A DNA stretch of 64,000 nt, taken from contig JAZRCW010000010.1 in assembly GCA_045659945.1 (NCBI GenBank), positions 60,884-124,883 on the forward strand, read 5' to 3'. The translations under genes and the position numbers were made by a program. Position 1 is the first letter of the stretch. Each line of letters begins with the position of its first letter. The stretch is from Ruminococcus sp. (GTDB taxonomy: Bacteria; Bacillota; Clostridia; Oscillospirales; Ruminococcaceae). The notes beneath the pieces are model-generated. The model saw nothing but the letters and a program-made list of their open reading frames with translations. It searched no databases and was not told where the DNA came from. This document shows positions 356-23,638 of this stretch, one piece after another.

Positions 356-1685
356 GCTTTTTTCCGCTGTAATGGCAGGCATATCGCTTCTTTCCATTAC
401 GGCAATGAACGGCTCCGCCTATTCAGGCAATCAGGTCAACGAGCCTCTTTCCGACGGTACTTTCGGTTACGAGCTCCGTGACGGCTCATATACTATTATA
501 AGCTGCTATGCTGACGCTATTGTTGAGGAAATCCCCGAACTCCGCAACGGCTATGCAGTTACCGCCATTGACGACAGAGCGTTGGCAAGCTGTACCAACA
601 TCAAAACCCTGTATATCCCCGATACTATTACTTCTATCGGTGATAACGCTTTTGCAGGCTGTGAATCGCTCAAAGAAATCCGACTCCCCAAAAAAATCAA
701 AAACATCGGCGACGGATTATTCATGGGCTGTACAAGACTTGAAAAAGTTGAAATCCCCGACGCAGTAAATACAATCGGCTCATACGCTTTCTATAATTGT
801 TCAAAGCTCACCGAAGTAGTTCTCCCCGGGGAACTTTCCACAATTGAACCCATGGCTTTTTCGGAGTGCAGCTCTATTGAAAATATTGACGCTTCAAAGT
901 GCAGCAGCTACGTTTTTGAGGACGGACTGCTTATGAACAAAAGCAAGACGAATATTGCCCGTGCCTCTGTTAAGCTTACAGGAGATGTTTACATCCCCGA
1001 CGGCATAACGACTATTGAGGCAGGCTCTTTCTCCGTCTGTGCAGGAATTGAAAATCTTTTCATTCCTTCCTCCGTTACTTATATCGGCGACGACGCTTTC
1101 GGCTACTGTGTAAATCTTAAAAATATTGACTTCTCCGAGGGATTACAAACAATCGCCCCTGTAGCTTTCAAAAACTGTACCTCCTTGCAGGCTCTTGATT
1201 TCCCCACAACATTACAGGAAATCGGCGACGGTGCTTTCTATAACTGTATATCACTCACCAGAGCAATTATCCCCGAGGGTACGCTGAAAGTGGGCGTGGG
1301 TGCATTTGTTGACTGTGCTGCTCTCAAAAATATGAGCATACCGAAAAGCGTTGCTGAAATCGGTGCTAACGCATTCGGATTCAAGCTTGACGAAACAGGC
1401 AACTACGTTAAAAAGGATGATTTCACTTTAAGCGTATTTTCAGGCACAGCAGGTGCTGACTATGCCAAGGACAGCAAGCTTGAATATTCCTACGTTGACA
1501 GGAATATCAAATCCACAGCCTTTATTATAGTTGCTGTCGGACTTATACTTGCGGCTGTTGTATTTGCCTTTGTACTTATGGCAAGAGGCAAAAAAAGTGC
1601 TTCTCTTTCCGCTAAAAAAGCCGATAAAAAGGCAAAGGCAAAGGAAGCGGAAGAAAATTACGAATCTATTATCGACAAAGAATAA
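342..1685 (+). CDS. BspA-like leucine-rich-repeat surface protein with signal peptide and C-terminal TM anchor
   Basis: N-terminal signal-like segment. Many ~23-aa repeats of the form IPDxITSIGDxAFxGCxSLKxI. C-terminal TM helix followed by a Lys-rich tail ending ENYESIIDKE. Confidence 0.8.
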   Translation: MKMNKLFSAVMAGISLLSITAMNGSAYSGNQVNEPLSDGTFGYELRDGSYTIISCYADAIVEEIPELRNGYAVTAIDDRALASCTNIKTLYIPDTITSIGDNAFAGCESLKEIRLPKKIKNIGDGLFMGCTRLEKVEIPDAVNTIGSYAFYNCSKLTEVVLPGELSTIEPMAFSECSSIENIDASKCSSYVFEDGLLMNKSKTNIARASVKLTGDVYIPDGITTIEAGSFSVCAGIENLFIPSSVTYIGDDAFGYCVNLKNIDFSEGLQTIAPVAFKNCTSLQALDFPTTLQEIGDGAFYNCISLTRAIIPEGTLKVGVGAFVDCAALKNMSIPKSVAEIGANAFGFKLDETGNYVKKDDFTLSVFSGTAGADYAKDSKLEYSYVDRNIKSTAFIIVAVGLILAAVVFAFVLMARGKKSASLSAKKADKKAKAKEAEENYESIIDKE

Positions 1686-1703
1686 CGGATTGGAGGAACA
1701 GAT

Positions 1704-2648
1704 ATGCAGGTAAAATTTCATCTCCCCGATTTTGCAAGCCAGTTCAAATTCAATCTTGTTTTTGCAACTATGCTGAAAAACTGCCCCCATTTTTTCCGTG
1801 AGGGCGTTGAAATAGCGTCGATATACGGCACTTTCCCACAGTCAATATGGAACGGCGGAAGAACTGTCCCAGGAAAATGCGGCACAGACTTTGCAGAAAT
1901 AGTTATGAGAACGCTCAACAAGCACGGTATCCCTTTGCGTTTTACCTTTACAAATCCCATGATTGAGGAAAAGCATCTCGGGGATAAATTCTGCAATGAT
2001 ATTCTGAAACTTGCAGATAACGGCATGAACGAGGTTATTGTAAACTCCGCTCTCCTTGAAGATTATATCAGAACGACATATCCGAATTATAAAATTACAA
2101 GCTCCACCTGCAAGCGTATAACAGAGCCAGACAAGCTTATTGAGGAAATCGAAAAGGATTACAGCATTGTTGTACTTGACTACGATTTCAACAACAAGTT
2201 CGATTTTCTCGAAACTCTCCCACACAAGGAGAAAATGGAAATCCTCATCAATGCCTGCTGTGATCCTGCCTGCCCGAGAAGAACGGAGCACTATCGTATT
2301 CTTGGAATGCAGCAGATTGCCGTATGTGAACACATGGCAAAAAAGAATGCGGAAAGATTTAATTTAAGGGATTACGGCGTTCCTGATATGCAGTGCAAAT
2401 GTGCCGACAGAACTATTTTCGACGTAACAAAATTAAGCACATACGTTTCACCCGAGGATATCTGGGAAAAGTACGTGCCTATGGGATTCAATCAGTTCAA
2501 GATTGAGGGCAGGACAACTCCCCGACTCAATCTCCTTGAAACATATCTCCACTATATGATAAAACCCGAACACAGGGACGAGGTGCGTTTTATGCTTCTC
2601 TATAACCTTGAAAAAAATGGGGTTGTACGTATTGAGGGAAATAACTGA
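1704..2648 (+). CDS. Conserved hypothetical protein, possibly peptidase-U32-like TIM-barrel family
   Basis: 314-aa ORF starting 18 nt after the previous stop. FKIEGR motif near the C-terminus resembles the U32 (PrtC-like) signature, and there is a Cys cluster CCDPACP. Function is uncertain. Confidence 0.55.
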   Translation: MQVKFHLPDFASQFKFNLVFATMLKNCPHFFREGVEIASIYGTFPQSIWNGGRTVPGKCGTDFAEIVMRTLNKHGIPLRFTFTNPMIEEKHLGDKFCNDILKLADNGMNEVIVNSALLEDYIRTTYPNYKITSSTCKRITEPDKLIEEIEKDYSIVVLDYDFNNKFDFLETLPHKEKMEILINACCDPACPRRTEHYRILGMQQIAVCEHMAKKNAERFNLRDYGVPDMQCKCADRTIFDVTKLSTYVSPEDIWEKYVPMGFNQFKIEGRTTPRLNLLETYLHYMIKPEHRDEVRFMLLYNLEKNGVVRIEGNN

Positions 2649-2652
2649 CAAT

Positions 2653-2681
2653 AAAGGGTATCGCAACCTGCGATACCCTTT
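2653..2681. terminator. Bidirectional intrinsic terminator between convergent genes
   Basis: 12-bp stem aaagggtatcgc / gcgatacccttt with a 5-nt loop, flanked by a T run on the plus strand. Lies between the stop at 2648 (+) and the stop at 2688 (-). Confidence 0.7.
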
Positions 2682-2687
2682 AATTTT

Positions 2688-4547
2688 TTATTCTGTTACT
2701 TCGGGAAGCTTTGTTATAAGCTTTGCATCAAATTTCTGAACTGCAAGAGCGTCAGCGGCTGTAATGCCGTCGCCAGGATTGCAGCAGTCAGCGTTTGCTG
2801 CTCCCTTTTCTGTAAGAGAATATTTGTCTGCGTTGCCTATAGTCTGATAAATTGCCGCAGCATCTGCAATTGTTACAGCACCGTCACAGTTAGCGTCACC
2901 AATCAATGTATTTGGAGCTGTTGTAGTAACAGGCTTTGCTGCTGTTGTAGTCTTAACAGGCTCCGTTGTGGAAGCTGTAGTAGGCTTAGCTGTTGTTGTA
3001 ACAGGCTTTGTTGCAGGAGTTCCGGGATTTTCACCCTTTGAACCGCCGTCAATGTTACTTCCCTCGCTTGCAGCGTAATTTGTATAATAATCATTGAGGG
3101 AGATACCATTAACACCAAGTGCAACTTCATGGTCAAGTCCGATATACTTTCCGCTTGTCTGTGTCTGCCACAGCGAAGGCTCGAAAAGTCCGTACTTTTC
3201 ATCGTCCCATGTCTTGAAGTCAACGCCGATAAGTCCGCCTGTATCGCCCGAGTTGGGGTTAAGGCACCAGAATGTATGGCTGATGTGGTTGTCAATCATA
3301 TAATCACGAAGCAGCTCCATCCACTTCTGATTCTTGCCGCCGTCCATATGTCCGCCCCATTCACCAATAAGCAGGGGTGCAATATCTTCCTCTACAATAT
3401 ATGCCCATGTGTCATACCAGTAATCGTCAAGGAGAGTCTGTGTTGTGAAGTCCTTGTCAAACCATGTCTGTGCGTAAACTGACGGACCGTAATCGTGGGG
3501 AGAGTAGACAATCTGGCTTGTACCGCTGTCGGGGATTACAGGATAATCTCTTACACCACGGAGATTTCCGCCCCACCATGCACCGTACCAAGGGGATTTA
3601 TCAGCAGGAGCGTCCCAGATATCGGGGGTATCATATGTATAGCCTGCCTCTGTTTTTGGATACTGCTCAACGCCCTCGATGAAAATGAGTGCATTGGGAT
3701 TTACATCAAGAATAGCATTTGCACATTTTGTAGCTGCATGTGCCCAGTTGTTTTCGTCTGTAGAGCCGTCCCATTTTGCAATATTATCGGGACAGGAATC
3801 GCCTGTATATCCACGCTTTCCGTGAGGCTCATTTTTAAGGTCGTAGCCAATAAGTGTATCATCATTCTTGTATTTGTCAGCAAGCCATACAAGTGACTCA
3901 ATCCACACATCTGTGGTAACACCAGCAAGACCGTACCAGATTTCATAGTTATGACCGGAGTTGTTTGCGTCGGGGCTGTGAATATCAATAAATGCCTTGA
4001 TACCGTACTTTTTGCACTTCTGCATAATGATATCGAAGATTTCCATTGAGTTTTTCAGAGTCTTTCCGTCCTCAAGAACAAAATCTCTGTTGATATCGCC
4101 GTACTTACCTGCTGGAGTGATAGTGCCGTCCTCGCCTACAACATCCTGCGGAGGATTGTAGGAAGCCTGTACAGAGCTTACAGGATTAGGTGAGCCCTCC
4201 ATCCATGAAACAAGAAGCTCCGAGGAAATGGGGAAGCGGATTACGTTTATACCGTGGTCAGCAACGCCCTTGAGGAAGTCGTCAACGTCACAGGCATAAA
4301 GACCGTGTGCACAGTTTTCAGAGCAGTTGAAGCCGAACCAGTTTGCACCTGTAAGCCATACCTCATTGCCGTTCATGTCGTAAAGGCGGCTGCCCTCTGC
4401 GTGGAGCCAGTCGTCGTTATTTGTATCTACGGCTTGGGCTGTATCTTTTGGTGCGGTGAGAAGTGTATTCACGGCTGATGATGTTCCTGTAAGGGTTATA
4501 GCTGCCGCCGAAGCCATAGCCGCAAGGACTCTTGTAAATTTCTTCAT
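2688..4547 (-). CDS. Glycoside hydrolase family 5 endoglucanase (cellulase) with Pro/Thr linker and C-terminal dockerin
   Basis: Signal peptide. GH5 catalytic motifs LKNEPHG and IGEWGG. TTTAKPTTASTTEPVKTTTAAKPVTTT linker. Two dockerin Ca-binding repeats: GDANCDGAVTIADAAAIYQ and NADCCNPGDGITAADALAVQKF. Confidence 0.9.
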   Translation of the reverse strand: MKKFTRVLAAMASAAAITLTGTSSAVNTLLTAPKDTAQAVDTNNDDWLHAEGSRLYDMNGNEVWLTGANWFGFNCSENCAHGLYACDVDDFLKGVADHGINVIRFPISSELLVSWMEGSPNPVSSVQASYNPPQDVVGEDGTITPAGKYGDINRDFVLEDGKTLKNSMEIFDIIMQKCKKYGIKAFIDIHSPDANNSGHNYEIWYGLAGVTTDVWIESLVWLADKYKNDDTLIGYDLKNEPHGKRGYTGDSCPDNIAKWDGSTDENNWAHAATKCANAILDVNPNALIFIEGVEQYPKTEAGYTYDTPDIWDAPADKSPWYGAWWGGNLRGVRDYPVIPDSGTSQIVYSPHDYGPSVYAQTWFDKDFTTQTLLDDYWYDTWAYIVEEDIAPLLIGEWGGHMDGGKNQKWMELLRDYMIDNHISHTFWCLNPNSGDTGGLIGVDFKTWDDEKYGLFEPSLWQTQTSGKYIGLDHEVALGVNGISLNDYYTNYAASEGSNIDGGSKGENPGTPATKPVTTTAKPTTASTTEPVKTTTAAKPVTTTAPNTLIGDANCDGAVTIADAAAIYQTIGNADKYSLTEKGAANADCCNPGDGITAADALAVQKFDAKLITKLPEVTE

Positions 4548-10073: not shown

Positions 10074-10100
10074 CAGGCGTATGCGTAAAGCATACGCCTG
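10074..10100. terminator. Bidirectional terminator hairpin between the CPCC gene (+) and feoA-like gene (-)
   Basis: 11-bp stem caggcgtatgc / gcatacgcctg with a 5-nt loop, followed by ttgttt. Confidence 0.7.
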
Positions 10101-10110
10101 TTGTTTATAT

Positions 10111-10341
10111 TCAAGTGACTACGCTTATTGCCGCCGCATCATCTTTACGCAGGGCAATTACTGTGCCTTTCACATAATAAGCCGCAGGGTCGCCTGAAAA
10201 GCTTTTACAACGGCATACAACAGGTGTACCTGCCGTAAAGCCAAGCTCTTTCAGCCTTTCAGATATATCCGAGGGCTTTACAGCCGATATAATACAGCGT
10301 TCGCCCTCTTTTAAATCGCTGAGATTTTTTTCGGATTTCAT
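10111..10341 (-). CDS. feoA: FeoA-domain (SH3-like) protein, orphan (no feoB nearby)
   Basis: LSDLKEGERCIISAV...LKELGFTAGTPVVCRCKS...GDPAAYYVKGTVIALRKDDAAAI matches the FeoA fold pattern. The ATG at 10341 is preceded by a GGAGG RBS. Confidence 0.7.
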   Translation of the reverse strand: MKSEKNLSDLKEGERCIISAVKPSDISERLKELGFTAGTPVVCRCKSFSGDPAAYYVKGTVIALRKDDAAAISVVT

Positions 10342-10382
10342 AATATCCTCCGTATAATATACTGCGGTTATACCGCTATACA

Positions 10383-11306
10383 TTATATTCCTGCAATGGC
10401 TATATTGTCATATACGCTTATTTCCGTGAAAACTCCGTTTCTGCCCCCTTTCACCTTTACTGCGTTTATCCTCCTTTTTCCCAGTTCATCAAGCACCGCA
10501 ATGTCGTTTAAATCCTGCCCCTGAAATCCCACGAACGTGAAGAAATGCCGCTTATACCCCCTCTCCGACATCATCATTTTGTATTGACAAGCCATGTCGG
10601 GATTGTTCAGAAATCTTCTGTCAAGCTCAAAATGGCGGTGACGGATAATATTTCTTGCCTCCGCTTCCGCCGACACTGCAGAAAAAGCTCCGTATTCTCC
10701 CGAAATATCAGCCATACTGTAACTGCTGACCATTCTCCTTGTCATGATTTCTGTGCCATAAGCATACATATTTTCCTTATCGCAGATTATTTCTCTCGTT
10801 TCATTCGGCATACTCATCATAACGGTATTGCTTTCAGCTACATATGGATATACCCCTGCAACTTTATATGAAAGATTAGCTATGCCGTCCCATATTGAAG
10901 CCCCTTTGTTGACATAGATATAACTGCTCTGCATATTGCTTTCGTGCTCAATATACGGGAATGAAATATAATCGTCAAACAGCTTGTCCAGAGTCATATC
11001 GGTGTACATTCCAGGGGGCAGCTGATTTTCCGTAAGCAGTGCTGTAAAGCCTCTTGAAGTCAGCACTCCCTGATTTATGCCGTTTCGCCTTGTTACCCTG
11101 TAGCTGTCAACAAAGCCGTGATGTATATGATAACCGTCAATATTAAACTTGACTTCGGTTATATCATCGGGCAGATTATCGCCGTATACCACGGCTTTCA
11201 GCAATGTATAAGGCGTATACGCTTCTTTTTCAAACGCAAATGACACACAGTTCTGCAAACTGCCCTCTGTGCCGTCTTTTGTTTTGTAATCAAGCCAGTA
11301 AATCAT
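10383..11306 (-). CDS. Phage structural protein, possibly gpD/XkdQ-like baseplate hub
   Basis: 307 aa with an ATGA overlap to the upstream ORF. Overall pattern (N-terminal beta domain, GFVDSY...LTSRGFTALL, C-terminal INAVKVKGGRNGVFTEISVY) resembles the late-control-D/XkdQ family. The assignment is tentative. Confidence 0.5.
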   Translation of the reverse strand: MIYWLDYKTKDGTEGSLQNCVSFAFEKEAYTPYTLLKAVVYGDNLPDDITEVKFNIDGYHIHHGFVDSYRVTRRNGINQGVLTSRGFTALLTENQLPPGMYTDMTLDKLFDDYISFPYIEHESNMQSSYIYVNKGASIWDGIANLSYKVAGVYPYVAESNTVMMSMPNETREIICDKENMYAYGTEIMTRRMVSSYSMADISGEYGAFSAVSAEAEARNIIRHRHFELDRRFLNNPDMACQYKMMMSERGYKRHFFTFVGFQGQDLNDIAVLDELGKRRINAVKVKGGRNGVFTEISVYDNIAIAGI

Positions 11307-11689
11307 TCTGTCACCCCGTCAAGAAAATATGCAATTGACCTTGTTGAAGCTTCCACCGTAAGCTCAATATAATCCTCTCCGCCGTCAACGGCTTTTACAC
11401 CTGTTATTATACATCTGATAAAACGCAAATCCTTGTATATGATTTCAACGCCTTCATTTCCGTTGAGGTTATTGGCAAAACCTGCATAAAACAGGGGTTT
11501 CTCCTTGTTGTACACCCTGCCTGTAAAAGACAGCCTTGTCACTTTTTTACATTTGTTTGTCACCACGGACGAGCCTGTAATCGTGGGATTTACAGTGACC
11601 GCCGTATCTGCCGATAACGTCATTTTTTCGCAGTACAGCGTCATTGTTCCTATTTTCACAGGGAAAGCTTTTTTGCCGCTTATCTCCAT
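11303..11689 (-). CDS. Phage-module hypothetical protein (128 aa)
   Basis: Start is directly adjacent to the upstream stop (11690/11689). No recognisable motif. Confidence 0.5.
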   Translation of the reverse strand: MEISGKKAFPVKIGTMTLYCEKMTLSADTAVTVNPTITGSSVVTNKCKKVTRLSFTGRVYNKEKPLFYAGFANNLNGNEGVEIIYKDLRFIRCIITGVKAVDGGEDYIELTVEASTRSIAYFLDGVTE

Positions 11690-12097
11690 TTACACCACCT
11701 CTTGCTGTTCGATAGTTTTCATGCAGCTTATCTTCATAACCGCTGTAAGAGTAAGCCTGTTCAGCTTACTGTCGGGACTTACCTTGACACTTTTCAAACG
11801 GCTGCAAATTCCGCACATACTGTCAATCACAGCTTCAAGATTATAGCGGTAGTAGCCGTAAAGCTGCTCCTGCGTTGTATTCATGGGGGCATATACTGTG
11901 AATGTCACATCACACTTAACAGGCATATATATCTTTTCTGCCGTGCGTATGGGATTAAGTGCTTCGTACTCCCCTGCTCCCACAACAACAAAATAATTCC
12001 CTTTGTCACGCACAGGCACAGCGTCATAGGCGGCACACACGTTTACAACGCCCTTATCCTCCAGTGCTTTTCTTATCTGCGAAAGTATCTCAACCAT
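11690..12097 (-). CDS. Phage head-tail joining/neck-like protein (135 aa)
   Basis: Position after a connector-like gene. Size and pattern are similar to DUF3168-type neck proteins. Tentative. Confidence 0.45.
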   Translation of the reverse strand: MVEILSQIRKALEDKGVVNVCAAYDAVPVRDKGNYFVVVGAGEYEALNPIRTAEKIYMPVKCDVTFTVYAPMNTTQEQLYGYYRYNLEAVIDSMCGICSRLKSVKVSPDSKLNRLTLTAVMKISCMKTIEQQEVV

Positions 12098-12109
12098 AAT
12101 GACACTCCT

Positions 12110-12460
12110 TTACACAGCTCCGATGAATACAAAATCGGAGCCTTTTATTATATCGCCGCAAAGTCGGAAATAACCCTTTAAAAGTCCCTCTGCAAATGAA
12201 AGTATTTTTCCGTCACTGTCGTTGAGCACCTTTCCGCCGTATGTAAATTCGGAACGCTCCTGTGCTGACAATGCCTGATAATAGCGGAAATTTGCAATTG
12301 CTGCACAGAGAAAATCAAGTCTTGGATCGTCCTTGTCGGCAGTTTCAAGAAGCATTCCCTCAATCTCAATTACTGCCGCTTCAATTATAGACTCGTGTTC
12401 CTCGCTGCAGGTATCTCCCGAAAAAAGCTTGAAAAGCGATTTTATTTTAGCTGTATTCAT
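12110..12460 (-). CDS. Phage head-tail connector-like protein (gp6-like)
   Basis: About 116 aa helical protein immediately after the protease gene. The ATG at 12460 has a GGAG RBS at 9-nt spacing. Confidence 0.5.
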   Translation of the reverse strand: MNTAKIKSLFKLFSGDTCSEEHESIIEAAVIEIEGMLLETADKDDPRLDFLCAAIANFRYYQALSAQERSEFTYGGKVLNDSDGKILSFAEGLLKGYFRLCGDIIKGSDFVFIGAV

Positions 12461-12472
12461 AAAATTCATCTC

Positions 12473-13297
12473 CTATATTCTGAAACGTGACATATCCTCT
12501 TTATTAATATCTCCCGAAAGCTGAATTTCTGTCTCTCTTTGCCTTGATATCGCTTCGTACCCCTTTTTGATAGCTTCAAGCTCCGTGATACTCTTTCCCT
12601 TTACGGTTTCTTCGGCTTTTTCAGCCGCCTTGACTCCGCCGCTGAAAAATGCAAGCTGTCTTATCTCACGGCAAAGCTTTTCTGTATCTGGAACATCTGA
12701 ATATACAGGAATTTTTTCATCGGCATTGTCGCTGTATTTCTTTGTAACTCCTGCATTTACCTGTGCAGGGACTGCCACAAAGCTCCATTCATAAGCGTCA
12801 GATATGCCGTCAAGAATTGTATGGCAGATACGTCCGCCGTAGCTTTTGCCGCTGATATGACCGCAGCTGCCCTGCGATTTATCCCTGCCGCATACGGAGC
12901 ATACTCTCTTTGCCGCAGAGCAGGAAATGCTGACTTCCTTTTTAATGCCGCCGTCAATTTCGGCTATGAGGTTTTTGTTATCATCGGTACGCACCATATA
13001 TGCGGAGGCTTTCAGATATTTGTAAGGCTCCCCGTTTTTCGTTGTGCGGCTTTCGTCGATTATAAGCTCTGTGTCGAATATTCTCGCCGTCTGGTTGGAT
13101 GTGCTGGGTTTGTGGTCTAATATCCCTGTCTTGCCTATGAACATATCTTTCAGCGTTTCAAGTGCCTTATCAGAAAAGCGTTCACAGTCACGGTCTATCT
13201 CGTTATCGCAGAGGATAACGGAAAATGTGTAGACCTCCGCTTCCGTCAACTCCCTGCGTGTGAATTTATTGATTTTTTCAAGAGTGTTTTTATCCAT
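12473..13297 (-). CDS. Prohead serine protease (S78/HK97-like) with Cys-rich insertion and scaffold-like C-terminal tail
   Basis: GKTGILDHKP (His) and KKEVSISCS (Ser) are spaced like S78 proteases, with ...EWSFVAVPAQVNAGV at the domain end. CSVCGRDKSQGSCGH insertion. Charged helical C-terminus. Confidence 0.65.
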   Translation of the reverse strand: MDKNTLEKINKFTRRELTEAEVYTFSVILCDNEIDRDCERFSDKALETLKDMFIGKTGILDHKPSTSNQTARIFDTELIIDESRTTKNGEPYKYLKASAYMVRTDDNKNLIAEIDGGIKKEVSISCSAAKRVCSVCGRDKSQGSCGHISGKSYGGRICHTILDGISDAYEWSFVAVPAQVNAGVTKKYSDNADEKIPVYSDVPDTEKLCREIRQLAFFSGGVKAAEKAEETVKGKSITELEAIKKGYEAISRQRETEIQLSGDINKEDMSRFRI

Positions 13298-13346
13298 GTT
13301 TTTTCCTTTCTTAAAGTTTGAGATTGTCGAAAAAGTCAAAATAAAT

Positions 13347-13553
13347 CAAATTAAAGGGACGCTCTCTCTTGCAGAGCGTCCCCTCTTTCAAAACAGTCCA
13401 CTGGACTGTTTTGAAATTCACCCCTTGCAGAGCGCTTGAATGCATCGCAGAGCTTTGCTCTGCGATGGGACTCTGTCCCATACCCTGGCAGAGGCTCTGC
13501 CTCTGGACTCCGCCAAAGGACAGTGTCCTTTGGAAACCCCGTTTTTGAAAACG
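13347..13553. repeat. Array of at least six consecutive short perfect hairpins (REP/BIME-like cluster)
   Basis: Stems: gggacgctct/agagcgtccc, caaaacagtcca/tggactgttttg, catcgcagagc/gctctgcgatg, gggac/gtccc, cagaggc/gcctctg, ccaaaggac/gtcctttgg, cgtttt/aaaacg. Confidence 0.9.
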
Positions 13554-13631
13554 ATAGTTTTTCGACAGACTGTAGCTAATTGCTAACGACTAAAAGCTTA
13601 TAAATAATTACGCATTATTATCGCCTTTCTG

Positions 13632-14588
13632 TCACGCAATTACAATTTTCTTTACCGCTTCGGGCATTATCTTTCTGAATCCGCAGGTGATTGATACGGT
13701 TATGCTGTCTAGCTGTCTGTCGATAAGCTTGTCCGTTTCCATTACAAGTCCCGAGCTTGTGATAAATTCAAGGGCAAAGTTCTTGTCAATGCCAAGAATT
13801 GTATTCTGCTCCATTGCCGAAGTTTTTACAAGTTCAGAGCCGAATGGGAGCATCATTTTTCCGTCGGCTGATACCTTTGTATCGGAAAGCTGTTCCATTG
13901 CCGCTATCTTTGAAGCGTCCGCTGGGTTTGCTATAACCGTTGTCATATCGAAGCAGTCAAAGCTGCCGTAAAGCTCCGCAAGGGAAGCATAGTTGAGTGA
14001 AGCCGCAGAAATTTCAGCCGCCGACTCCGCAAGAACTGACATAGCCTTTTTAACCACCGATATCGCAAGCTTAACGCCGATACCACGGAGCATTACACCG
14101 AATACATCAAGTCGCTGCTTTCTCACAGCCTCATATGAAGCGTTGATGAGTCTGCCGTATTTTTCAAGTACTACCGCTGTATCGCCCTCTGTAACAACAG
14201 ATTCGGGCAGCTTTACCGTCTGTGCCGTAGGGGAATATTCAGCCGTATCGTCAAGGACACAGCCTAAATACTGACCGCTTTCGCATACCGTCTTTACCGC
14301 TGTTACCGATGAAAGCACAGTGCCGTCAAAGCCCTTTGCAATACATCTCTTGACGTATTCAGGGAAGAGTACTGCCGTTTCTCCCGATGTGAAAAACTTC
14401 TCCACACAGTCGCATTCCGTGCCGCTTACTCTGATGTTAAAGCGTTTCAGCTGTCTTTCAAATGCGTCGAGAGATTCAAGCTCCGTACCGATATATGCAG
14501 CGGAGGGGTCAAGCTCCTCTAAAGCCGCTGTAAAGCTCTTGCCGCTGAAATTGTACATACCCTTTTCAAGTCTTACATCATTATACAT
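13632..14588 (-). CDS. Phage major capsid protein (HK97 fold)
   Basis: About 318 aa. Pattern typical of HK97-family capsids, including the C-terminal ...GIDKNFALEFITSSGLVMETDKLIDRQLDSITVSITCGF. The ATG at 14588 is 8 nt after GGAGG. Confidence 0.7.
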   Translation of the reverse strand: MYNDVRLEKGMYNFSGKSFTAALEELDPSAAYIGTELESLDAFERQLKRFNIRVSGTECDCVEKFFTSGETAVLFPEYVKRCIAKGFDGTVLSSVTAVKTVCESGQYLGCVLDDTAEYSPTAQTVKLPESVVTEGDTAVVLEKYGRLINASYEAVRKQRLDVFGVMLRGIGVKLAISVVKKAMSVLAESAAEISAASLNYASLAELYGSFDCFDMTTVIANPADASKIAAMEQLSDTKVSADGKMMLPFGSELVKTSAMEQNTILGIDKNFALEFITSSGLVMETDKLIDRQLDSITVSITCGFRKIMPEAVKKIVIA

Positions 14589-14605
14589 ATAAATTTCCTC
14601 CACAA

Positions 14606-15733
14606 TCAATTATTGTTTAATCTCATTTCAATTTCCGCCGCCCTTGCGTTGTTTAACCTTGTTTCCGCAAGGACGGATTCATCCTGTAAATTTATATTGT
14701 CCCATTCAACGGAACATTTTCCGCTGTAACCCCGTGATTTCAGATAAGCGTTGCCTATGTCGCATAAAACCGGGGTAAGCAGGCGGCGGTAATATTCCAG
14801 TTCAGAGGTGAGAATATCCGCCTGCTGTGACGACATACGCTCCGTTGAGCTCCACGTAAGTCCCAGAAGGAAGGGCGGTATTGACAGCTTTGCAACTATC
14901 TGCTCCAACAGCTGTCGGACGGGGATTTCTGTGTCAATTAGCTGATTTTCAGCACCGATAACCTTTATATCCACATCGCCCACAGCGATAAAATCCTTTA
15001 CCTGCCCGTATTTTGCGGAGTTCATACCGTCCGCCCACTCCCTTGCTATCTGCATTGCACGTTCTCTTGAGTGAATAAACTCCCCCGAGCCCTCTGTGGG
15101 TTTATATGTAACCGCATAGCGGACATTGCCCACACGGTCGTAATTCTGCCCGATACACTGATATATCCGCAGGAGTATACTGCTCATTGCAGGTAGCCCT
15201 CTCAAAAGAGAGTTGCCGCCTGTTAATGCGGCGTATACTATACGCTCGGGATGTTTTACTGCCTTAACACTGTTGTCGGCACATCTTACGGCATACCGCC
15301 TGTCAAATGGTGTCACGCCCTGACTTACCACAATTCTTGTGCTGTCGCCGTTCCACAAGCCTGCTATCTCTCTTTCTCTCTCGTTGAGGACGATTTCACC
15401 TACTGCATTGCCATAGGTGAGCAGGCTGTCTAAAAAGGTATCGGCAAAGCAATTCAACGATTTTCCATGAAGTCCTACGGGGACAGTTTCGCAGAAGCTG
15501 TCAAGCTCCTCCTGATACCTCTTTTCGGAGCTGATAAGTCTGAAGCCCCCTGTAAGTCGGACGATTTTCATTATTGCCGCATCAATGACGGGTACGGCAT
15601 ATCTCAATCTGTCGAACAGCTCTTTTTCAAAGGGTGAAGCATTGTTTGGCAGGGTGAAAATCGAGTCATTTTCCCTTGCCGCCTGATATAATTCGGGAGC
15701 TGCTCTTGGTGTTTTTTTCTTGAATAGTTTCAT
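14606..15733 (-). CDS. Phage portal protein
   Basis: 375 aa. SIPPFLLGLTWSSTERMS... and overall portal-family pattern. Lies between terL and the capsid gene. AGGAGG RBS. Confidence 0.8.
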   Translation of the reverse strand: MKLFKKKTPRAAPELYQAARENDSIFTLPNNASPFEKELFDRLRYAVPVIDAAIMKIVRLTGGFRLISSEKRYQEELDSFCETVPVGLHGKSLNCFADTFLDSLLTYGNAVGEIVLNEREREIAGLWNGDSTRIVVSQGVTPFDRRYAVRCADNSVKAVKHPERIVYAALTGGNSLLRGLPAMSSILLRIYQCIGQNYDRVGNVRYAVTYKPTEGSGEFIHSRERAMQIAREWADGMNSAKYGQVKDFIAVGDVDIKVIGAENQLIDTEIPVRQLLEQIVAKLSIPPFLLGLTWSSTERMSSQQADILTSELEYYRRLLTPVLCDIGNAYLKSRGYSGKCSVEWDNINLQDESVLAETRLNNARAAEIEMRLNNN

Positions 15734-15745
15734 TTTTCCTCCTTT

Positions 15746-16987
15746 TCATCGTGTAACAGACATTGCAAAGAAACTGTCTGTATTCTCTTTCATCACCTCC
15801 GATACAAAATATCGCATATCGTCCATTGCGTGGTCGTTTTCCTTAATGGGAGCGTCCGCACCTGCTTTGGCTGACCAGCGGTACAGGGAAAATTCACGTA
15901 TTATATCCGTGCAGGATTCGTGGAATTTCAGCCTGCCCTCTTTAAGTGCCGCCGCTACCCTGCGTATACCTGCAATTACATCGTTATCTGCCCTTACTAC
16001 GTGAAATTTTCCGTGTCGTCTGATACATTCAATAAAGCTTGCCGCAGAGGGATCTATAATCACTTTTTCAATTTTATACCCCTTTGCAAGCTTTTTCAGA
16101 GCCTTGTAATGCTCCTCATCTGTACGTGACTGCCCCTCCTTACGTGAATCGTAGTAGTACTCCCGTATTCGGTACCATATGCCGTGCTGATATCCCCATA
16201 AGCCGAATGAAGATGGATTGACCGTACCGTAATCGCAGGATATTATGTATCTTTCACATTCGGGTATGATTGAAATGATGTGTTTTTCCTGCGAGAACAT
16301 GGGGTATACAGTTCCCTCGGATACCGTCCATTTTCCCAGTACATAGCGGTCGTAGAATGCCCCTGAATACAGTCTTTTATAGCGGTCTTTTAACTTCTCC
16401 GACAACGACGGGTTATCGTCCATTGTGAAATGGATATACAATGCATTTTTGCTTTCCGTCTTTCTGATCCATTCATTGTAGAACCAGTGGGAGGGATTGT
16501 CGGGATTGCAGTTGAACCACATTTTTGAGCCGTTCACGGAGCATCGTGCCAACGCCTGTTCCACAAAGGAACGGGGCATAAGTGCCACTTCATCGAGAAA
16601 TACTCCCGAAAGAGTTATACCTTGTATGAGTGCCGCAGAGCTTTCGTCACGTCCGCCGAAGTAATAGAAACGATTTTTTCTGCCGCCAAAACTGATATCA
16701 ACGTAACTGCGGCTTACTTTTTCCTCGCAGACCATGCCTATATCACGGAGCATAGGCAATAACGGAGTTATGACATTTCTACGCAGAGAAGTCACGGTCT
16801 TACCGCAAACCGCAAAAGCTCCTCCGCTGAAACTGTTCATCGCCCACATTGCAAAGCCTAGCGACATTGACATTGTCTTTCCGCTTCGCACTGCACCGTC
16901 GCAGATTATTGCATCATACTGCGAATACCTCTTATCAAGCCACCAGTTCATTGTAAGCCGCTGTTTCGGGGAAATTTCAGTTATCAT
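15746..16987 (-). CDS. terL: Terminase large subunit (PBSX-type)
   Basis: Walker A CDGAVRSGKT, Walker B-like GVFLDE, C-terminal nuclease region with DPSAASF...HAMDDMRY. The ATG at 16987 follows GGGGAGG and overlaps the terS end. Confidence 0.9.
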   Translation of the reverse strand: MITEISPKQRLTMNWWLDKRYSQYDAIICDGAVRSGKTMSMSLGFAMWAMNSFSGGAFAVCGKTVTSLRRNVITPLLPMLRDIGMVCEEKVSRSYVDISFGGRKNRFYYFGGRDESSAALIQGITLSGVFLDEVALMPRSFVEQALARCSVNGSKMWFNCNPDNPSHWFYNEWIRKTESKNALYIHFTMDDNPSLSEKLKDRYKRLYSGAFYDRYVLGKWTVSEGTVYPMFSQEKHIISIIPECERYIISCDYGTVNPSSFGLWGYQHGIWYRIREYYYDSRKEGQSRTDEEHYKALKKLAKGYKIEKVIIDPSAASFIECIRRHGKFHVVRADNDVIAGIRRVAAALKEGRLKFHESCTDIIREFSLYRWSAKAGADAPIKENDHAMDDMRYFVSEVMKENTDSFFAMSVTR

Positions 16988-17351
16988 TATTACCTCCCCT
17001 TTCTGCTGACGCTGACAGTGCCTCAATCAGACCTGCCGCTGAATTTTTGTTTTCCTGTTTTGTTTCAAGCTCGTAAAGCTTTTCAAGTGCCTTTAAACGG
17101 TCGAAAAATTTGATTTCCACACCGCCGCCCTTTACACGTTTAATCTCGGACACGTTGAATAAGTCCATTTCTTCGATAACATTAGGCGGCGGAAGCTCCT
17201 CTGCAAAGGCAAGTGCAACAGCGTCACCGCATCCGCCGAATGCAAGTCGTCTTAATCCTGATTTCACGGCGGATTCTTCGGGATTATCCGTCATTAAACA
17301 CTGACAGCAGAAATCGTACTTCCTTTTATTATTTTTTTCAGCCATTGGCAT
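16977..17351 (-). CDS. terS: Terminase small subunit (short form)
   Basis: C-terminal ...IKRVKGGGVEIKFFDRLKALEKLYEL matches the Terminase_2-type oligomerisation core. Lies immediately upstream of terL. Confidence 0.65.
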   Translation of the reverse strand: MPMAEKNNKRKYDFCCQCLMTDNPEESAVKSGLRRLAFGGCGDAVALAFAEELPPPNVIEEMDLFNVSEIKRVKGGGVEIKFFDRLKALEKLYELETKQENKNSAAGLIEALSASAERGGNNDN

Positions 17352-17511
17352 AACACCTCCTCTCACTAAAGGGCAAAAACGGGGCTTTTTTCAACCAAAA
17401 ATGGTTGAATATTGAAAAATAATTTTTATTTTCTGCGTTTTCACTAATTATCAACAGCATTTAATATTTATAAACCACAAAAAGATTGATATATTTTTAA
17501 CGAGATGTAAT

Positions 17512-17547: not shown

Positions 17548-18294
17548 CTAAAAATCTATTTTTTTACCTTTAGCCTTTAATTTTTCATACTCTGCAAGAG
17601 CTTCTGCTTCTTCCTTTGCAAGTTCTGCTTTCACTCTTTCCGTATCATCCTGCGTGAATACTTCTTCAACCTCGTTAAAAAGGGTACTGCCGCTGAATAC
17701 AGCCTCGGTTGCCCTATCACCGTAACAGTCAATTTCAATCTGCTCACGGTCACGGAAGAATTTCATTGCTCCAAAAAGAAGCGAAAATCCAACTGCATTT
17801 GTAATGATACTGAAATATATTCGTATACCCAGTATATTGCCAAGCATACCTGCAACTATAAGCGTAAAGCAGGCACCTATGGCAACTTCCCATTTTACAT
17901 TGTCGGGATCAAGCTGTAAAAACGCAAATGCCGCAAGTCCCGATACAACGGCATGAGCCATTGCAAGGGGAAGTGAATACGGCTCATAGGCTTCAATTCT
18001 GTAAGAATTAAGCTCCAGAATCATCATCACGACTTCAAGGAAAATATATATCGTAAAACTTACTTTAAGAAGCCGCCTTAAACGTATGCTCTTTATAAGA
18101 AGCCAGTCTGAATAAAGCAGAAGTCCGAACCCTGCAAATTCTACGCAATAAGCAATGGTTTCAATCAGTCTTGAGCCAAAGCTTTCAGGTTTATATGTGT
18201 AATAGTACAACAGACATATCAGACCAAAGGCAACAAAAAGCAGATTACCTATAAGTCCGAAAAATATGCCTTTAGTCAGTTTTTCCTGCTGCAT
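17548..18294 (-). CDS. Multi-pass membrane protein with acidic coiled-coil C-terminus
   Basis: About six hydrophobic helices, then ...ERVKAELAKEEAEALAEYEKLKAKGKK. No known motif. Confidence 0.65.
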   Translation of the reverse strand: MQQEKLTKGIFFGLIGNLLFVAFGLICLLYYYTYKPESFGSRLIETIAYCVEFAGFGLLLYSDWLLIKSIRLRRLLKVSFTIYIFLEVVMMILELNSYRIEAYEPYSLPLAMAHAVVSGLAAFAFLQLDPDNVKWEVAIGACFTLIVAGMLGNILGIRIYFSIITNAVGFSLLFGAMKFFRDREQIEIDCYGDRATEAVFSGSTLFNEVEEVFTQDDTERVKAELAKEEAEALAEYEKLKAKGKKIDF

Positions 18295-19617: not shown

Positions 19618-20592
19618 TTATTTTATAACAATATTTTCTATCAGCTTTTCAAAATCGGCTTTTACCTGTTCGTGACCGTTAGTATCGCTGTTATAAATTT
19701 CAAAGCTGTAAATCACATCATTTTTTTCAAATGCATATATTGTTGTTCTTCTCCAGCTATCATTATCATAATACATAACACTATAGCCATCAAATCCAAG
19801 AATTTCTGTTTCAGATATATCTTCAACAAAATCAAAATCTTCTGTTGAATCAAAGTATATTTCTCTGATATATTCCTCTGCTGAATTGTATTCTGAATTT
19901 GTTATGGCTTCTAACGTCAGTGTGGCAATTTCTTCTGCTAAAGTATCAACATCAAAATATATTATGTGTGCCGCATTATCATTTTCAGTTGCAACTGAAG
20001 AAAATATTGTATACTCATCGGGAATGTTAATTGAAAAATAGTCACACTCAAATTCTGTTTTCGGTCGTTTAATATTGCCATAAGTTCTGGCACTTTCAAT
20101 TATTTCAAATGCAAGCTGACGTATGAGGTTTTCATCTTTGTCTTTGGGATAAGTCACTTCTACTCCAAAGCCGTTGAGAACATAATCTTTTCCATTTGTT
20201 TCATATATTGTGTATCTTTCATTTTCATCTGTATCAAAAGAATAAGCAATAACATCATACCTTCCGCATTCTATAATTTCATATGAACAATTTTGCTTGT
20301 CCGCATATATCCGGTTATAATGTTCTATAAGAACTTCGTTAGTTATGCTTCCATAAAAATCATAATTGCCGAAAACTCTAAAGACCGTATCATTATCATA
20401 ATGATAATTGTCGAGTAACTCGCCCTTTTTGAAATCACTTCTCACATCATATTCTACCCATTTAACCATTTCAACCGTTTCATAGCTTGAAGCCTCTTTC
20501 AGATTGCCGCTTTCGTCAAGGTCTGAACAGCCTGTAAATGTACATACGGACATAGCCATAGCGGTAAATACTGATAAAAATTTTTTGTTCAT
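19618..20592 (-). CDS. Hypothetical lipoprotein
   Basis: Lipobox FTAMAMSVCTFTGC. 324 aa acidic protein with no recognisable domain. Confidence 0.65.
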   Translation of the reverse strand: MNKKFLSVFTAMAMSVCTFTGCSDLDESGNLKEASSYETVEMVKWVEYDVRSDFKKGELLDNYHYDNDTVFRVFGNYDFYGSITNEVLIEHYNRIYADKQNCSYEIIECGRYDVIAYSFDTDENERYTIYETNGKDYVLNGFGVEVTYPKDKDENLIRQLAFEIIESARTYGNIKRPKTEFECDYFSINIPDEYTIFSSVATENDNAAHIIYFDVDTLAEEIATLTLEAITNSEYNSAEEYIREIYFDSTEDFDFVEDISETEILGFDGYSVMYYDNDSWRRTTIYAFEKNDVIYSFEIYNSDTNGHEQVKADFEKLIENIVIK

Positions 20593-22026: not shown

Positions 22027-22914
22027 TCAATAATCTTCGTATTCGTATCTTATTTCGGAAGAATCGTCAACTTCGAGTATCTTGCGGTTTTTATCATCAT
22101 ACTCATAGTTTATCACAACATGCTGTTCAGAACCGTAGACATCCGAGGTCTTCTTGATAAGGTTGCTGTGGTCATCGTACTCGTACACATACGTAAAATC
22201 CTTGAACGTTTCTTTTTTATTTCCGAATTTATCCTTTGTACGTTCTCGGGTTTCTGTAAGCATATTTCCGGCATCGTCATAGGTATATGTATGCTCTGCA
22301 ATTTCATCCTTATGAGCAGAATCATTAACAGTTTTCTTTGTGATATTACCATTTTCGTCATATTCGTACGTATACTTGTATACCCTTTCTATGCCTTCAT
22401 CGACATCGGCACTGAACCATTCAGTCTCATTGCCATGCTCGTCATACTTTGTTTCGTAGTATGACGATTTTTTGAGTTCGCCGTTGTTATTGTAATAGAT
22501 CGTTGTACTTGTCTGATTTCCTGCTTCATCATAGGTATTGATAAATACAGCTCCTATATCGTTTTTATCATTGCTGTACCATATATCTTTCAAAAGATTT
22601 CCGTTTTCATCGTACACTAAGCCATACTCTGTGTCCAAAGAAGAATGTATTACTTCGCCTGTATTGATATCCAACTTATTCTTTTTGATAGTATGATCAT
22701 GCTCATCGTAAAGAATTTCATACTTCTCTTTAAGCTCGCCATTATCATAATGCGATTCTATGCATTTATAAGCTGGTTCATTTTCGGGAATTGTCAGTTC
22801 TTCTTCAGAAAGAGTATCGGGCATAGCTTCGAATTTTTCAGGCATTTCATTCTTGCAAGCGACAAGCGAGAAAAGCATTGCCGTAGCAATTAATATAGCA
22901 TATATTCTTTTCAT
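22027..22914 (-). CDS. Lipoprotein built of YD-like repeats
   Basis: Lipobox LFSLVAC. Repeated Y(x)YDxxGN(x)xK units: YDENGNLLK, TYDEAGNQTS, KYDEHGNETE, YEYDENGNITKK, YTYDDAGNMLTE, YEYDDHSNLIKK, YEYDDKNRKILE. The ATG at 22914 avoids overlap with purO. Confidence 0.75.
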   Translation of the reverse strand: MKRIYAILIATAMLFSLVACKNEMPEKFEAMPDTLSEEELTIPENEPAYKCIESHYDNGELKEKYEILYDEHDHTIKKNKLDINTGEVIHSSLDTEYGLVYDENGNLLKDIWYSNDKNDIGAVFINTYDEAGNQTSTTIYYNNNGELKKSSYYETKYDEHGNETEWFSADVDEGIERVYKYTYEYDENGNITKKTVNDSAHKDEIAEHTYTYDDAGNMLTETRERTKDKFGNKKETFKDFTYVYEYDDHSNLIKKTSDVYGSEQHVVINYEYDDKNRKILEVDDSSEIRYEYEDY

Positions 22915-22924
22915 CGGAAAAGCC

Positions 22925-23638
22925 TTATTTATTCTTATTAATAATTCTTGTTTCAACAGAACCGTCCTCAAGATTTACAAAGCGAACAAAGAGAGATACC
23001 TTGTTATCCTCGTTGAGATTGTTCCAGAGCATATCTGTAAATTCGTCGATATTTCCGCTGATTTCTACAAGCTTAGGCTCGCCCTCGAAGCTTGGGAGAG
23101 GATTGCCGTCGCCCATATATGTGTGAATAAAGCGTCCCTCGCCGTTGATTGGGTCATTGTAGCTGAATGTGTATCTCTGGCAGGAATCGGGGTTGCCGTT
23201 TGCACTTTTGAGAATTGACATTGCATAGTTGAAGCCGTCCTCGTCAAAACGGAGAATACCTGAAATACGAGGTGTGTAGTTGGGAGCGTCGTCCTCAAAT
23301 TCACGTGTACGGAGAGCCTGCTCAAATGTGAACTGCTTATCCATAAGCTCGTAAATTGTATCAGTCTGATCGCCGTTTGTAACAATAAGCTTATTTCCAA
23401 GAACTCTTACAGGTGCGTAAATAATAAGGTGGGGATCAGTAAGCTTTGAGGGATCAAATGCCTGTGTGCGGATGCCCTCGCCGTCCTCAACGAATACACG
23501 GTTACGACTGTTTTCGCTTCTGCCCATAATGAAATAGCCTGTTACAGCATATTTGCCGTCCTCTGACTTACCGATAACGATACCTCTGCCGGGGTATGCG
23601 TTTGAACTTAATTCCTTTGCTAAATCCAGTTTAATCAT
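22925..23638 (-). CDS. purO: IMP cyclohydrolase, PurO (archaeal) type
   Basis: NAYPGRGIVIGKSEDGKYAVTGYFIMGRSENSRNRVF is characteristic of the PurO-type IMP cyclohydrolase family. Confidence 0.8.
   Translation of the reverse strand: MIKLDLAKELSSNAYPGRGIVIGKSEDGKYAVTGYFIMGRSENSRNRVFVEDGEGIRTQAFDPSKLTDPHLIIYAPVRVLGNKLIVTNGDQTDTIYELMDKQFTFEQALRTREFEDDAPNYTPRISGILRFDEDGFNYAMSILKSANGNPDSCQRYTFSYNDPINGEGRFIHTYMGDGNPLPSFEGEPKLVEISGNIDEFTDMLWNNLNEDNKVSLFVRFVNLEDGSVETRIINKNK

Follow-up and report, generated by a model that had tools for sequence, protein, structure and literature searches.

A nine-gene operon of phage origin in the chromosome of Ruminococcus sp. probably encodes the core of a domesticated particle, similar to a gene transfer agent (GTA), that is inherited vertically within the genus. 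The operon lies in a stretch of 64,000 nucleotides (nt), referred to as the window (GenBank assembly GCA_045659945.1, contig JAZRCW010000010.1, positions 60,884–124,883 of the forward strand), whose ribosomal-protein operon, pur genes, tagGH-like transporters and cellulases mark it as chromosomal. Nine consecutive open reading frames (ORFs) on the minus strand (10383–17351) contain no internal stops and run from the small and large terminase subunits (TerS and TerL) through the portal, the major capsid protein, a protease-like protein of 274 amino acids (aa) and three small proteins of 119, 135 and 128 aa to a final protein of 307 aa. An original prediction, made from the DNA sequence, had described a head-and-packaging-only operon with no tube gene, and had taken its intact, translationally coupled state to reflect a retained function and not decay. 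The view on function is upheld by the comparisons described below. The description as head-only needs revision, as predicted structures give the 128-aa protein a tail-tube/Dit fold and the 307-aa protein that of a tail hub, so that the operon is predicted to encode a head, a neck, one tube-fold ring and a hub.

A scan for the portal, using one genome per species, gave relatives in 226 genomes, and the best 80 loci were studied. All of these belong to Ruminococcus (the R. flavefaciens group and others), with portal identities of 66–94%. The nine genes are intact, in the same order and of near-constant length in 71–80 loci, which is every locus long enough to contain them. Median identities are approximately 70% for TerL, portal and capsid, 63% for the protease-like protein and 33–44% for the neck, tube and hub proteins. 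Pairwise ratios of non-synonymous to synonymous substitution rates (dN/dS) lie between 0.04 and 0.2 for the nine genes, with 0.36 as the widest value (119-aa protein), and the low ratios hold against the relative L081, for which dS is low and unsaturated. For individual genes the ranges are 0.04–0.16 for the capsid, 0.08–0.2 for TerS and, for the 119-aa and 135-aa proteins that are each conserved in 74 loci, 0.09–0.36 and 0.07–0.3 respectively. Across 15 genomes, portal, TerL and capsid diverge at the protein level in step with purD (Mantel r 0.71–0.81 between the distances, p = 5e-4). The flanks vary with lineage but consist of housekeeping genes in all of them: the nearest 15 loci share the flank of purD and a membrane-protein gene, others are flanked by genes for AzlCD, FakA, Asp23, GH94, esterases or an epimerase, and no mobility or phage genes recur in the flanks of the best 80 species loci. 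The operon is therefore conserved genus-wide, is under purifying selection and is inherited vertically. Compared across genomes, the orthologous loci are neither complete prophages nor pseudogenised, and the retained function proposed earlier agrees with the 71–80 syntenic and intact loci, the selection acting on them and their co-divergence with purD.

As had been stated, the window ORFs scanned gave no match to an integrase or to a replication, lysis, sheath or tape-measure gene, and the other window ORFs that lack a function gave no phage match to PHROG or Pfam. The stretch from the neck genes to the hub leaves no room for ORFs encoding a sheath, tube chaperones, a tape measure, a wedge or fibres. 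The locus has two hallmarks of a GTA: structural and packaging genes stand in the chromosome without genes for replication, integration or lysogeny, and they are maintained by the host lineage through conservation, vertical descent and purifying selection.

The folds of the hub and of the tube-like protein were recovered by structure comparison only; sequence-profile searches of the Protein Data Bank (PDB) gave nothing usable for these two proteins, the 119-aa and 135-aa proteins, the protease-like protein or the capsid. The AlphaFold2 (AF2) model of the 307-aa protein is of high confidence (pLDDT 89, pTM 0.85). Foldseek aligns it with Mu gp44 in the PDB (1wru, E 3e-18, TM 0.72), and also with the MuSo2 43-kDa protein (3cdd), VgrG, gp27 and siphophage Tal, while the matches in BFVD are Mu gpP, 43-kDa tail protein and protein D. 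On this predicted structure the protein is a baseplate hub, in agreement with its earlier description as hub-like. Its family comprises 185 clusters at 50% identity (E<=1e-10; 1.84 billion representatives searched), and in almost all of them the protein is 300–320 aa long. The model of the 128-aa protein aligns in the PDB with the baseplate tube proteins of Bas63 and E217, the tubes of phage 812, PVC and AFP, and further with the N-domains of SPP1 and TP901-1 Dit, RcGTA (6tba) and the Mu baseplate (E 3e-5 to 1e-3, TM 0.6–0.68).

At the other end of the operon, profile searches identified TerL, portal and capsid, and the earlier assignments of these three (TerL as PBSX-type) are confirmed by Pfam, PHROG and NCBIfam matches. 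TerL matches NCBIfam TIGR01547 (1e-69), Pfam Terminase_6N/3/6C and phrog_2 (9e-53), and its translation contains Walker A (GAVRSGKT), Walker B (VFLDE) and acidic nuclease motifs. The portal belongs to a family of at least 8000 clusters at 90% identity, the 120 top clusters of which are all from Ruminococcus. Many of these portals carry the NCBI label ‘serine/threonine protein phosphatase’ (P0067, P0072, P0079, P0087 and others). The assignment of TerS holds by descent: the window protein matches Pfam Terminase_2 below threshold (E 0.005), but its homology to Terminase_2-positive orthologues, one of which is annotated as such, is clear. In the orthologue alignment an in-frame deletion of 41 aa in the N-terminal helix–turn–helix (HTH) region of TerS is found only in the window and in the 96%-identical relative L081; all other aligned orthologues retain this region. 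The deletion might make packaging in this lineage less specific for DNA sites.

The capsid gene precedes the gene for the 274-aa protein, an order that had been remarked upon and that the ORF positions confirm. The capsid gave no NCBIfam match at E<=0.1, and hence none to N4-gp56. The 274-aa protein matches phrog_16951 (5e-92) and is probably, with moderate support from sequence comparison, a prohead protease with a scaffold-like tail. Its former label of S78-like protease has weak backing: Peptidase_S78_2 (XkdF) is reached by 6 of 45 orthologues (best E 4.6e-5), the L082 homologue matches the head maturation protease family phrog_18299 (7e-5), and His62 and Ser123 are invariant. Also invariant is the cluster C133/C136/C145/H147, which belongs to a conserved Cys-rich insert.

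Between these two genes lies a spacer with approximately seven tandem stem–loops, which are perfect and share a common GCAGAGC/GCTCTGC motif. The minimum free energy of its fold is -129.9 kcal/mol (z = -7.46). Nearly all orthologous loci have a structured spacer at this point, of median length 89 nt. Since the length ranges from 13 to 410 nt and the number of hairpins from 0 to 10, the array grows and shrinks between species. The spacer is probably an attenuator or an mRNA stabilizer that would set the ratio of capsid to the downstream proteins.

Table 1. Positions of the operon genes and associated features in the window, from the 3' to the 5' end of the operon
Feature	Coordinates	Strand	Remarks
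Terminator-like hairpin 3' of feoA	10074..10100	-	bidirectional with the convergent CPCC gene
FeoA-domain protein, 76 aa	10111..10341	-	FeoA 2.7e-16; ribosome-binding site and start at 10341
Baseplate hub (predicted structure), 307 aa	10383..11306	-	final operon gene; Mu gp44/P2 gpD/T4 gp27/VgrG-N fold
Tube-fold protein (tube-initiator/Dit-like ring, predicted structure), 128 aa	11303..11689	-	AF2 pLDDT 84
Putative neck protein (stopper/terminator-like), 135 aa	11690..12097	-	position
Putative head–tail adaptor, 119 aa	12110..12469	-	position and size
Probable prohead protease with C-terminal scaffold-like helical tail, 274 aa	12473..13297	-	XkdF type
Structured spacer, 334 nt	13298..13631	-	~7 tandem stem–loops; terminator-like hairpin 13353–13385 at the end
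Major capsid protein, 318 aa	13632..14588	-	Phage_capsid_4 1.6e-8; phrog_3922 major head protein 4e-61
Portal, 375 aa	14606..15733	-	phrog_30703 7e-126; Pfam Phage_portal sub-threshold
TerL, large terminase, 413 aa	15746..16987	-	PBSX family; 11-nt overlap with TerS
TerS, small terminase, 124 aa	16977..17351	-	Terminase_2 type
Element M, ~110 bp	17352..17458	-	sigma70-like promoter candidate, A/T tract, palindrome TTCAACCATTTTTGGTTGAA (17390–17409), C-rich box, ribosome-binding site

The operon (Table 1) sits between a membrane-protein gene (17548–18294), which has its own terminator, and feoA; the flanks are, as described before, housekeeping genes (purD, membrane protein, feoA, CPCC and tagGH). 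From TerS to the hub the junctions measure -11, +12, +17, +334, +3, +12, 0 and -4 (ATGA) nt, and a GGAGG-type ribosome-binding site (RBS) precedes almost every start. The nine intact minus-strand frames free of frameshifts, the individual junctions and the RBSs were all correctly given in the original prediction, but its gaps of 0–17 nt leave out the spacer after the capsid gene. Its range of 10111–17366 is also too wide at both ends. It takes in feoA, which has its own start, RBS and promoter-like site, and it begins TerS at a mechanically chosen GTG (17366), whereas the start that follows the RBS is the ATG at 17351.

Upstream of TerS lies a conserved element, named element M. Its sigma70-like pair has the form TTGTGC-17-AAWTAT, and in most species a second hairpin precedes the RBS. 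Aligned across species it is conserved far beyond the expectation for neutral DNA. An nhmmer search with the element matches the window at 17358–17416 and, in 67 of 75 loci, finds a single copy ahead of TerS. Its exact pattern occurs a single time in the window, more than chance predicts. When metagenome contigs were scanned for this pattern, 56 sites were found, of which approximately 22 head TerS operons and approximately 33 lie in other intergenic regions. The latter copies, from rumen and gut contigs, carry the same extended flanks that the pattern does not impose, and 22 of the 33 point at a convergent housekeeping gene from its 3' side. Some copies precede primase or ATPase genes, and in three cases (L149, L189 and L195) the element is part of a cos-type prophage, with the integrase on one side and the replication module on the other. 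Two contigs hold both a TerS copy and a further copy, and pairs within a contig are more alike than pairs between contigs. Element M could be a multi-copy promoter/operator, a packaging-related (pac-like) site or a repeat similar to repetitive extragenic palindromes. A riboswitch or small RNA is not claimed, as RNAalifold supports only a stem of 5–6 bp with weak covariation and many broken pairs and no Rfam family was matched. Service as an attachment (att) site of the cluster is ruled out by the single copy per locus; no second copy flanks the cluster, and flanking repeats are absent, as had been reported.

More distant relatives give an indication of how the operon arose. Among 57 loci in IMG/VR, those with a portal identity of at least 55% have the capsid before the protease, whereas those at or below 57%, and GenBank MT835508 (‘Bacteriophage sp.’), show the canonical order of portal, protease and capsid. 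Both types stop at the hub. The canonical order in distant relatives shows that capsid-before-protease, which had been noted as non-canonical, is a derived swap with its junction at the structured spacer; the order was correctly observed and is now to be read as a rearrangement. In two still more distant relatives (L132 and L134, portal identity 44–48%) the hub is followed by proteins of 120 and 77 aa, a Baseplate_J protein and more. These regions (L132 12306–15478, L134 7046–10728) have no room for a sheath, tube or tape measure, an arrangement that may be termed ‘baseplate-on-neck’. Together with the PBSX-type TerL and the XkdF-type protease, the gene order of these relatives suggests a stepwise reduction from a PBSX/Mu-like contractile-tailed ancestor, in which the sheath–tube–tape-measure block would have been lost before the wedge. 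A scan of viral contigs with the L132 and L134 Baseplate_J proteins for an unlinked wedge/lysis operon returned self matches only. L132 and L134 adjoin bacterial amylopullulanase genes, and the enzyme next to L132 has MucBP and CBM26 domains. Fragments of the locus with ABC-transporter neighbours have been deposited as ‘Bacteriophage sp.’ from faecal virus-like particles (VLPs) (MT835508, MT836604 and others), and IMG/VR lists fragments, many of them 4–6 kb long, as viral genomes.

Bacterial DNA has been reported to reach gut VLPs most often through GTA-like packaging, mainly in Ruminococcaceae and Oscillospiraceae. The fragments reported for Ruminococcaceae measure 4.6–8.9 kb; for R. callidus 4.6-kb fragments were described, with the locus not identified there (PMC12946183, Nat Commun 2026). 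The same study defined FpGTA of Faecalibacterium prausnitzii, which is near-ubiquitous in its genus. Its operon I encodes TerS, TerL, portal, scaffold and capsid, and operon II, 125 kb away, encodes baseplate, fibre, receptor-binding protein, holin and endolysin. The particles are 40 nm in size, look short-tailed or tail-less and contain DNA of ~8.5–9 kb; the capsid is of the N4-gp56 family, the protease is a Prp-type cysteine protease and the tail has a podovirus nozzle (PMC12946183). Like FpGTA, the present locus is a chromosomal phage-derived operon, near-ubiquitous in a genus of the Ruminococcaceae, with TerS, TerL, portal, protease/scaffold and capsid, a few hypothetical proteins and no integrase or replication gene. 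It differs in its Phage_capsid_4/phrog_3922 capsid, which has no N4 match, in its XkdF-type serine protease and PBSX TerL, in having a tube-fold ring and gp44-type hub in place of a nozzle, and in its size (7 kb and nine genes, compared with 10.5 kb and ten genes). Membership of the FpGTA lineage is ruled out by the capsid family (NCBIfam and the proteomics table of PMC12946183), the protease, and the hub as opposed to the nozzle.

The likeness to PBSX and Mu-like phages is of a different kind. The TIGR01547 TerL, the XkdF-type protease and a gp44/XkdQ-type hub after a tube-fold gene are held in common, and L132 and L134 keep the order of hub and then Baseplate_J (XkdT-like). PBSX packages host DNA yet acts as a bacteriocin (PMC12946183). 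Domestication and the packaging of host DNA without self-propagation would be common to both, for PBSX according to that study and for the present candidate as judged from its genes. However, the sheath, tube polymer, tape measure, wedge, fibre and lysis genes of PBSX are missing here (~7 kb compared with ~28 kb), and the operon cannot form a contractile killer particle.

With RcGTA the operon shares a vertically inherited run of head-to-hub genes under purifying selection, the lack of replication and integration genes, and the match of the tube-fold protein to 6tba. RcGTA possesses a tape measure, tube, distal tail protein, hub and megatron (PDB 6tba), with accessory genes elsewhere in the genome, and its TerS lacks a DNA-binding domain. 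The two systems differ in being of independent origin and in that most TerS orthologues of the present operon keep the HTH.

From these features the following mode of action is proposed. Transcription would start at the conserved element M, and the hairpin/terminator array after the capsid gene would give a high output of capsid and a low output of neck and hub proteins. Small procapsids of the HK97 type would mature through the XkdF-type protease and the terminase would fill them with DNA by a headful mechanism. The neck, tube ring and trimeric gp27/gp44-type hub would then close the capsids, giving stubby particles of podovirus-like appearance. As there is no gene for replication, integration, lysogeny, lysis or receptor binding, such particles could not spread the locus, and release and adsorption would depend on unlinked genes of the host or of a prophage. 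The life style would be that of a GTA or of a PBSX-like element.

Several observations weigh against this interpretation. Lysis, fibre and receptor-binding genes are found neither in the 64-kb window nor within 10 kb on either side of the 80 loci. The 119-aa and 135-aa proteins have no Pfam or PHROG family and no PDB match, and no family emerged consistently when 86 orthologues of the neck proteins were compared with Pfam; the description of the 119-aa protein as connector-like is thus not supported by any family, and the neck roles of both proteins are putative assignments from position. Because most TerS orthologues keep the HTH, unlike TerS of the RcGTA type, packaging may be site-specific and not random. 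The presence of element M in prophage early regions might mean that expression of the operon needs a resident phage. Finally, dS in the operon is 2–4 times that of the flanking purD, purH and tagH, with the highest values in the neck and hub genes, and the genes are mosaic between close relatives; high dS and mosaicism point to some recombination or gene flow over vertical descent. The 135-aa protein is 82% identical to that of L004 and 60% to that of L001, while the 128-aa protein is 72% identical to that of L001 and 58% to that of L004. These mosaic identities suggest allelic exchange of the distal neck/tube/hub module on top of vertical descent.

An alternative is a chromosomally fixed, satellite-like capsid island that is activated by a resident or infecting phage through element M, uses the lysis functions and perhaps the fibres of that phage for release and may package cognate-site DNA. 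The recurrence of element M in the integrase–replication interval of prophages and ahead of primase and ATPase genes, the greater similarity of copies on the same contig, the lack of linked lysis genes and the DNA-binding HTH of most TerS orthologues are all in its favour. We nevertheless regard such a helper-dependent island as unlikely. In none of 80 species does the cluster have an integrase, excisionase, regulator or primase linked to it, no repeats flank it and it co-diverges with purD; its own tube ring and hub would terminate the tail, leaving no need for a borrowed one; and two-thirds of the non-TerS copies of element M (22 of 33) face convergent housekeeping 3' ends, which is unlike a phage-specific promoter. 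Vertical descent and the lack of integrase, primase and att repeats make a mobile satellite unlikely in general. The stricter form of this idea, a capsid-forming phage-inducible chromosomal island (cfPICI), or else an autonomous minimal podovirus-like prophage, is highly improbable. The compact set of TerS, TerL, portal, capsid, protease and putative connectors does recall cfPICIs, the core of which consists of an integrase, an AlpA/MerR/Stl regulator and a primase-replicase, with tail and holin genes excluded (PMC10085698). The likeness extends to the lack of lysis genes, the adaptor/connector part of it being positional. However, integrase, regulator and primase are absent from the window and from the recurrent flanks, inheritance is vertical without att repeats, and the tail hub and tube-fold protein are excluded by the cfPICI definition; an autonomous virus would require a replication gene, which is missing.

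A domesticated particle might also serve a purpose other than gene transfer, such as killing or defence in the manner of PBSX, or the release or disposal of DNA at lysis, with the packaged DNA being incidental. The PBSX-family TerL and XkdF-type protease fit with this, given that PBSX is a bacteriocin (PMC12946183), as do the lack of linked receptor-binding genes and the neck and hub genes that are fast-evolving and mosaic like arms-race loci. It is rendered rather improbable, more so than the helper-dependent island, by the absence of the contractile apparatus through which PBSX kills (sheath, tube and tape measure are missing) and by the constraint on TerS, TerL and portal, the strongest in the operon (dN/dS about 0.04–0.09), which indicates that DNA packaging itself is selected. 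Least credible of all is a recent deletion remnant of a prophage, intact for want of time. The phage origin is beyond doubt and both IMG/VR and GenBank list fragments as viral, but nine genes intact across species at only ~70% capsid, portal and TerL identity (dN/dS 0.04–0.2), and not one complete prophage among the orthologous loci, speak against it; synteny, intact ORFs, low dN/dS and co-divergence with purD rule out a decaying or recently truncated prophage. On the sequence evidence the best fit is a GTA-like domesticated particle with the needed lysis and adsorption functions unlinked, which accounts for the locus better than a satellite that borrows helper tails.

The GTA-like reading may tentatively be extended, to a point that we think possible but would not call likely. 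Ruminococcus would then possess a genus-wide, undescribed GTA family with a small capsid, one tube-fold ring and a gp44 hub, which would have evolved from a PBSX/Mu-like myovirus through successive gene losses. This family would be the source of the ~4.6 kb capsid-packaged DNA described for Ruminococcus from gut viromes, and element M would be a shared control or packaging site that couples the particle to prophage induction or steers its cargo. A prior description of the Ruminococcus operon was not found in the searchable literature (subscription-only literature lay outside this scope).

FpGTA is the only GTA locus defined so far for gut packaging and none has been defined in Ruminococcus, which makes the operon a concrete candidate. 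In the rumen and hindgut, members of the R. flavefaciens group are keystone degraders of fibre, and gene exchange among them, for example of cellulosome components, is poorly known. The operon is small (7 kb, nine genes) and is present in the cultured strains FD-1, 007c, ATCC 19208, YAD2003 and others. The reduction series from contractile tail through baseplate-on-neck to hub-only bears on how minimal a DNA-delivering particle can be. The operon should also allow database labels to be corrected where portals are named as phosphatases or locus fragments are counted as viruses.

The feoA gene downstream of the hub has a promoter-like site at 10411–10382 and probably has its own promoter; it is treated here as a gene linked to the operon. 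In 39 of 67 loci the hub is followed on the same strand, within 400 nt, by a FeoA gene, including loci in which the remaining flanks are different. It stands alone, with no feoB nearby, yet is linked to the operon across lineages.

The interval upstream of the operon is a hotspot for insertions. In L081 it contains two LRR_5 genes (1307–3292), and in L140 (1–7703) an element with MmeI, HEPN, Mob_Pre and integrase genes is inserted at two tRNA genes. The L140 integrase, the single one seen beside a cluster, was considered as a part of the cluster and rejected, as it lies past the two tRNA genes inside this restriction-modification/Mob element. In the window itself, a 324-aa ORF without any family (19618–20592) lies between purD and purH, and a 314-aa ORF with an RHS-repeat match (22027–22971, minus strand) lies within the purine-biosynthesis gene array.

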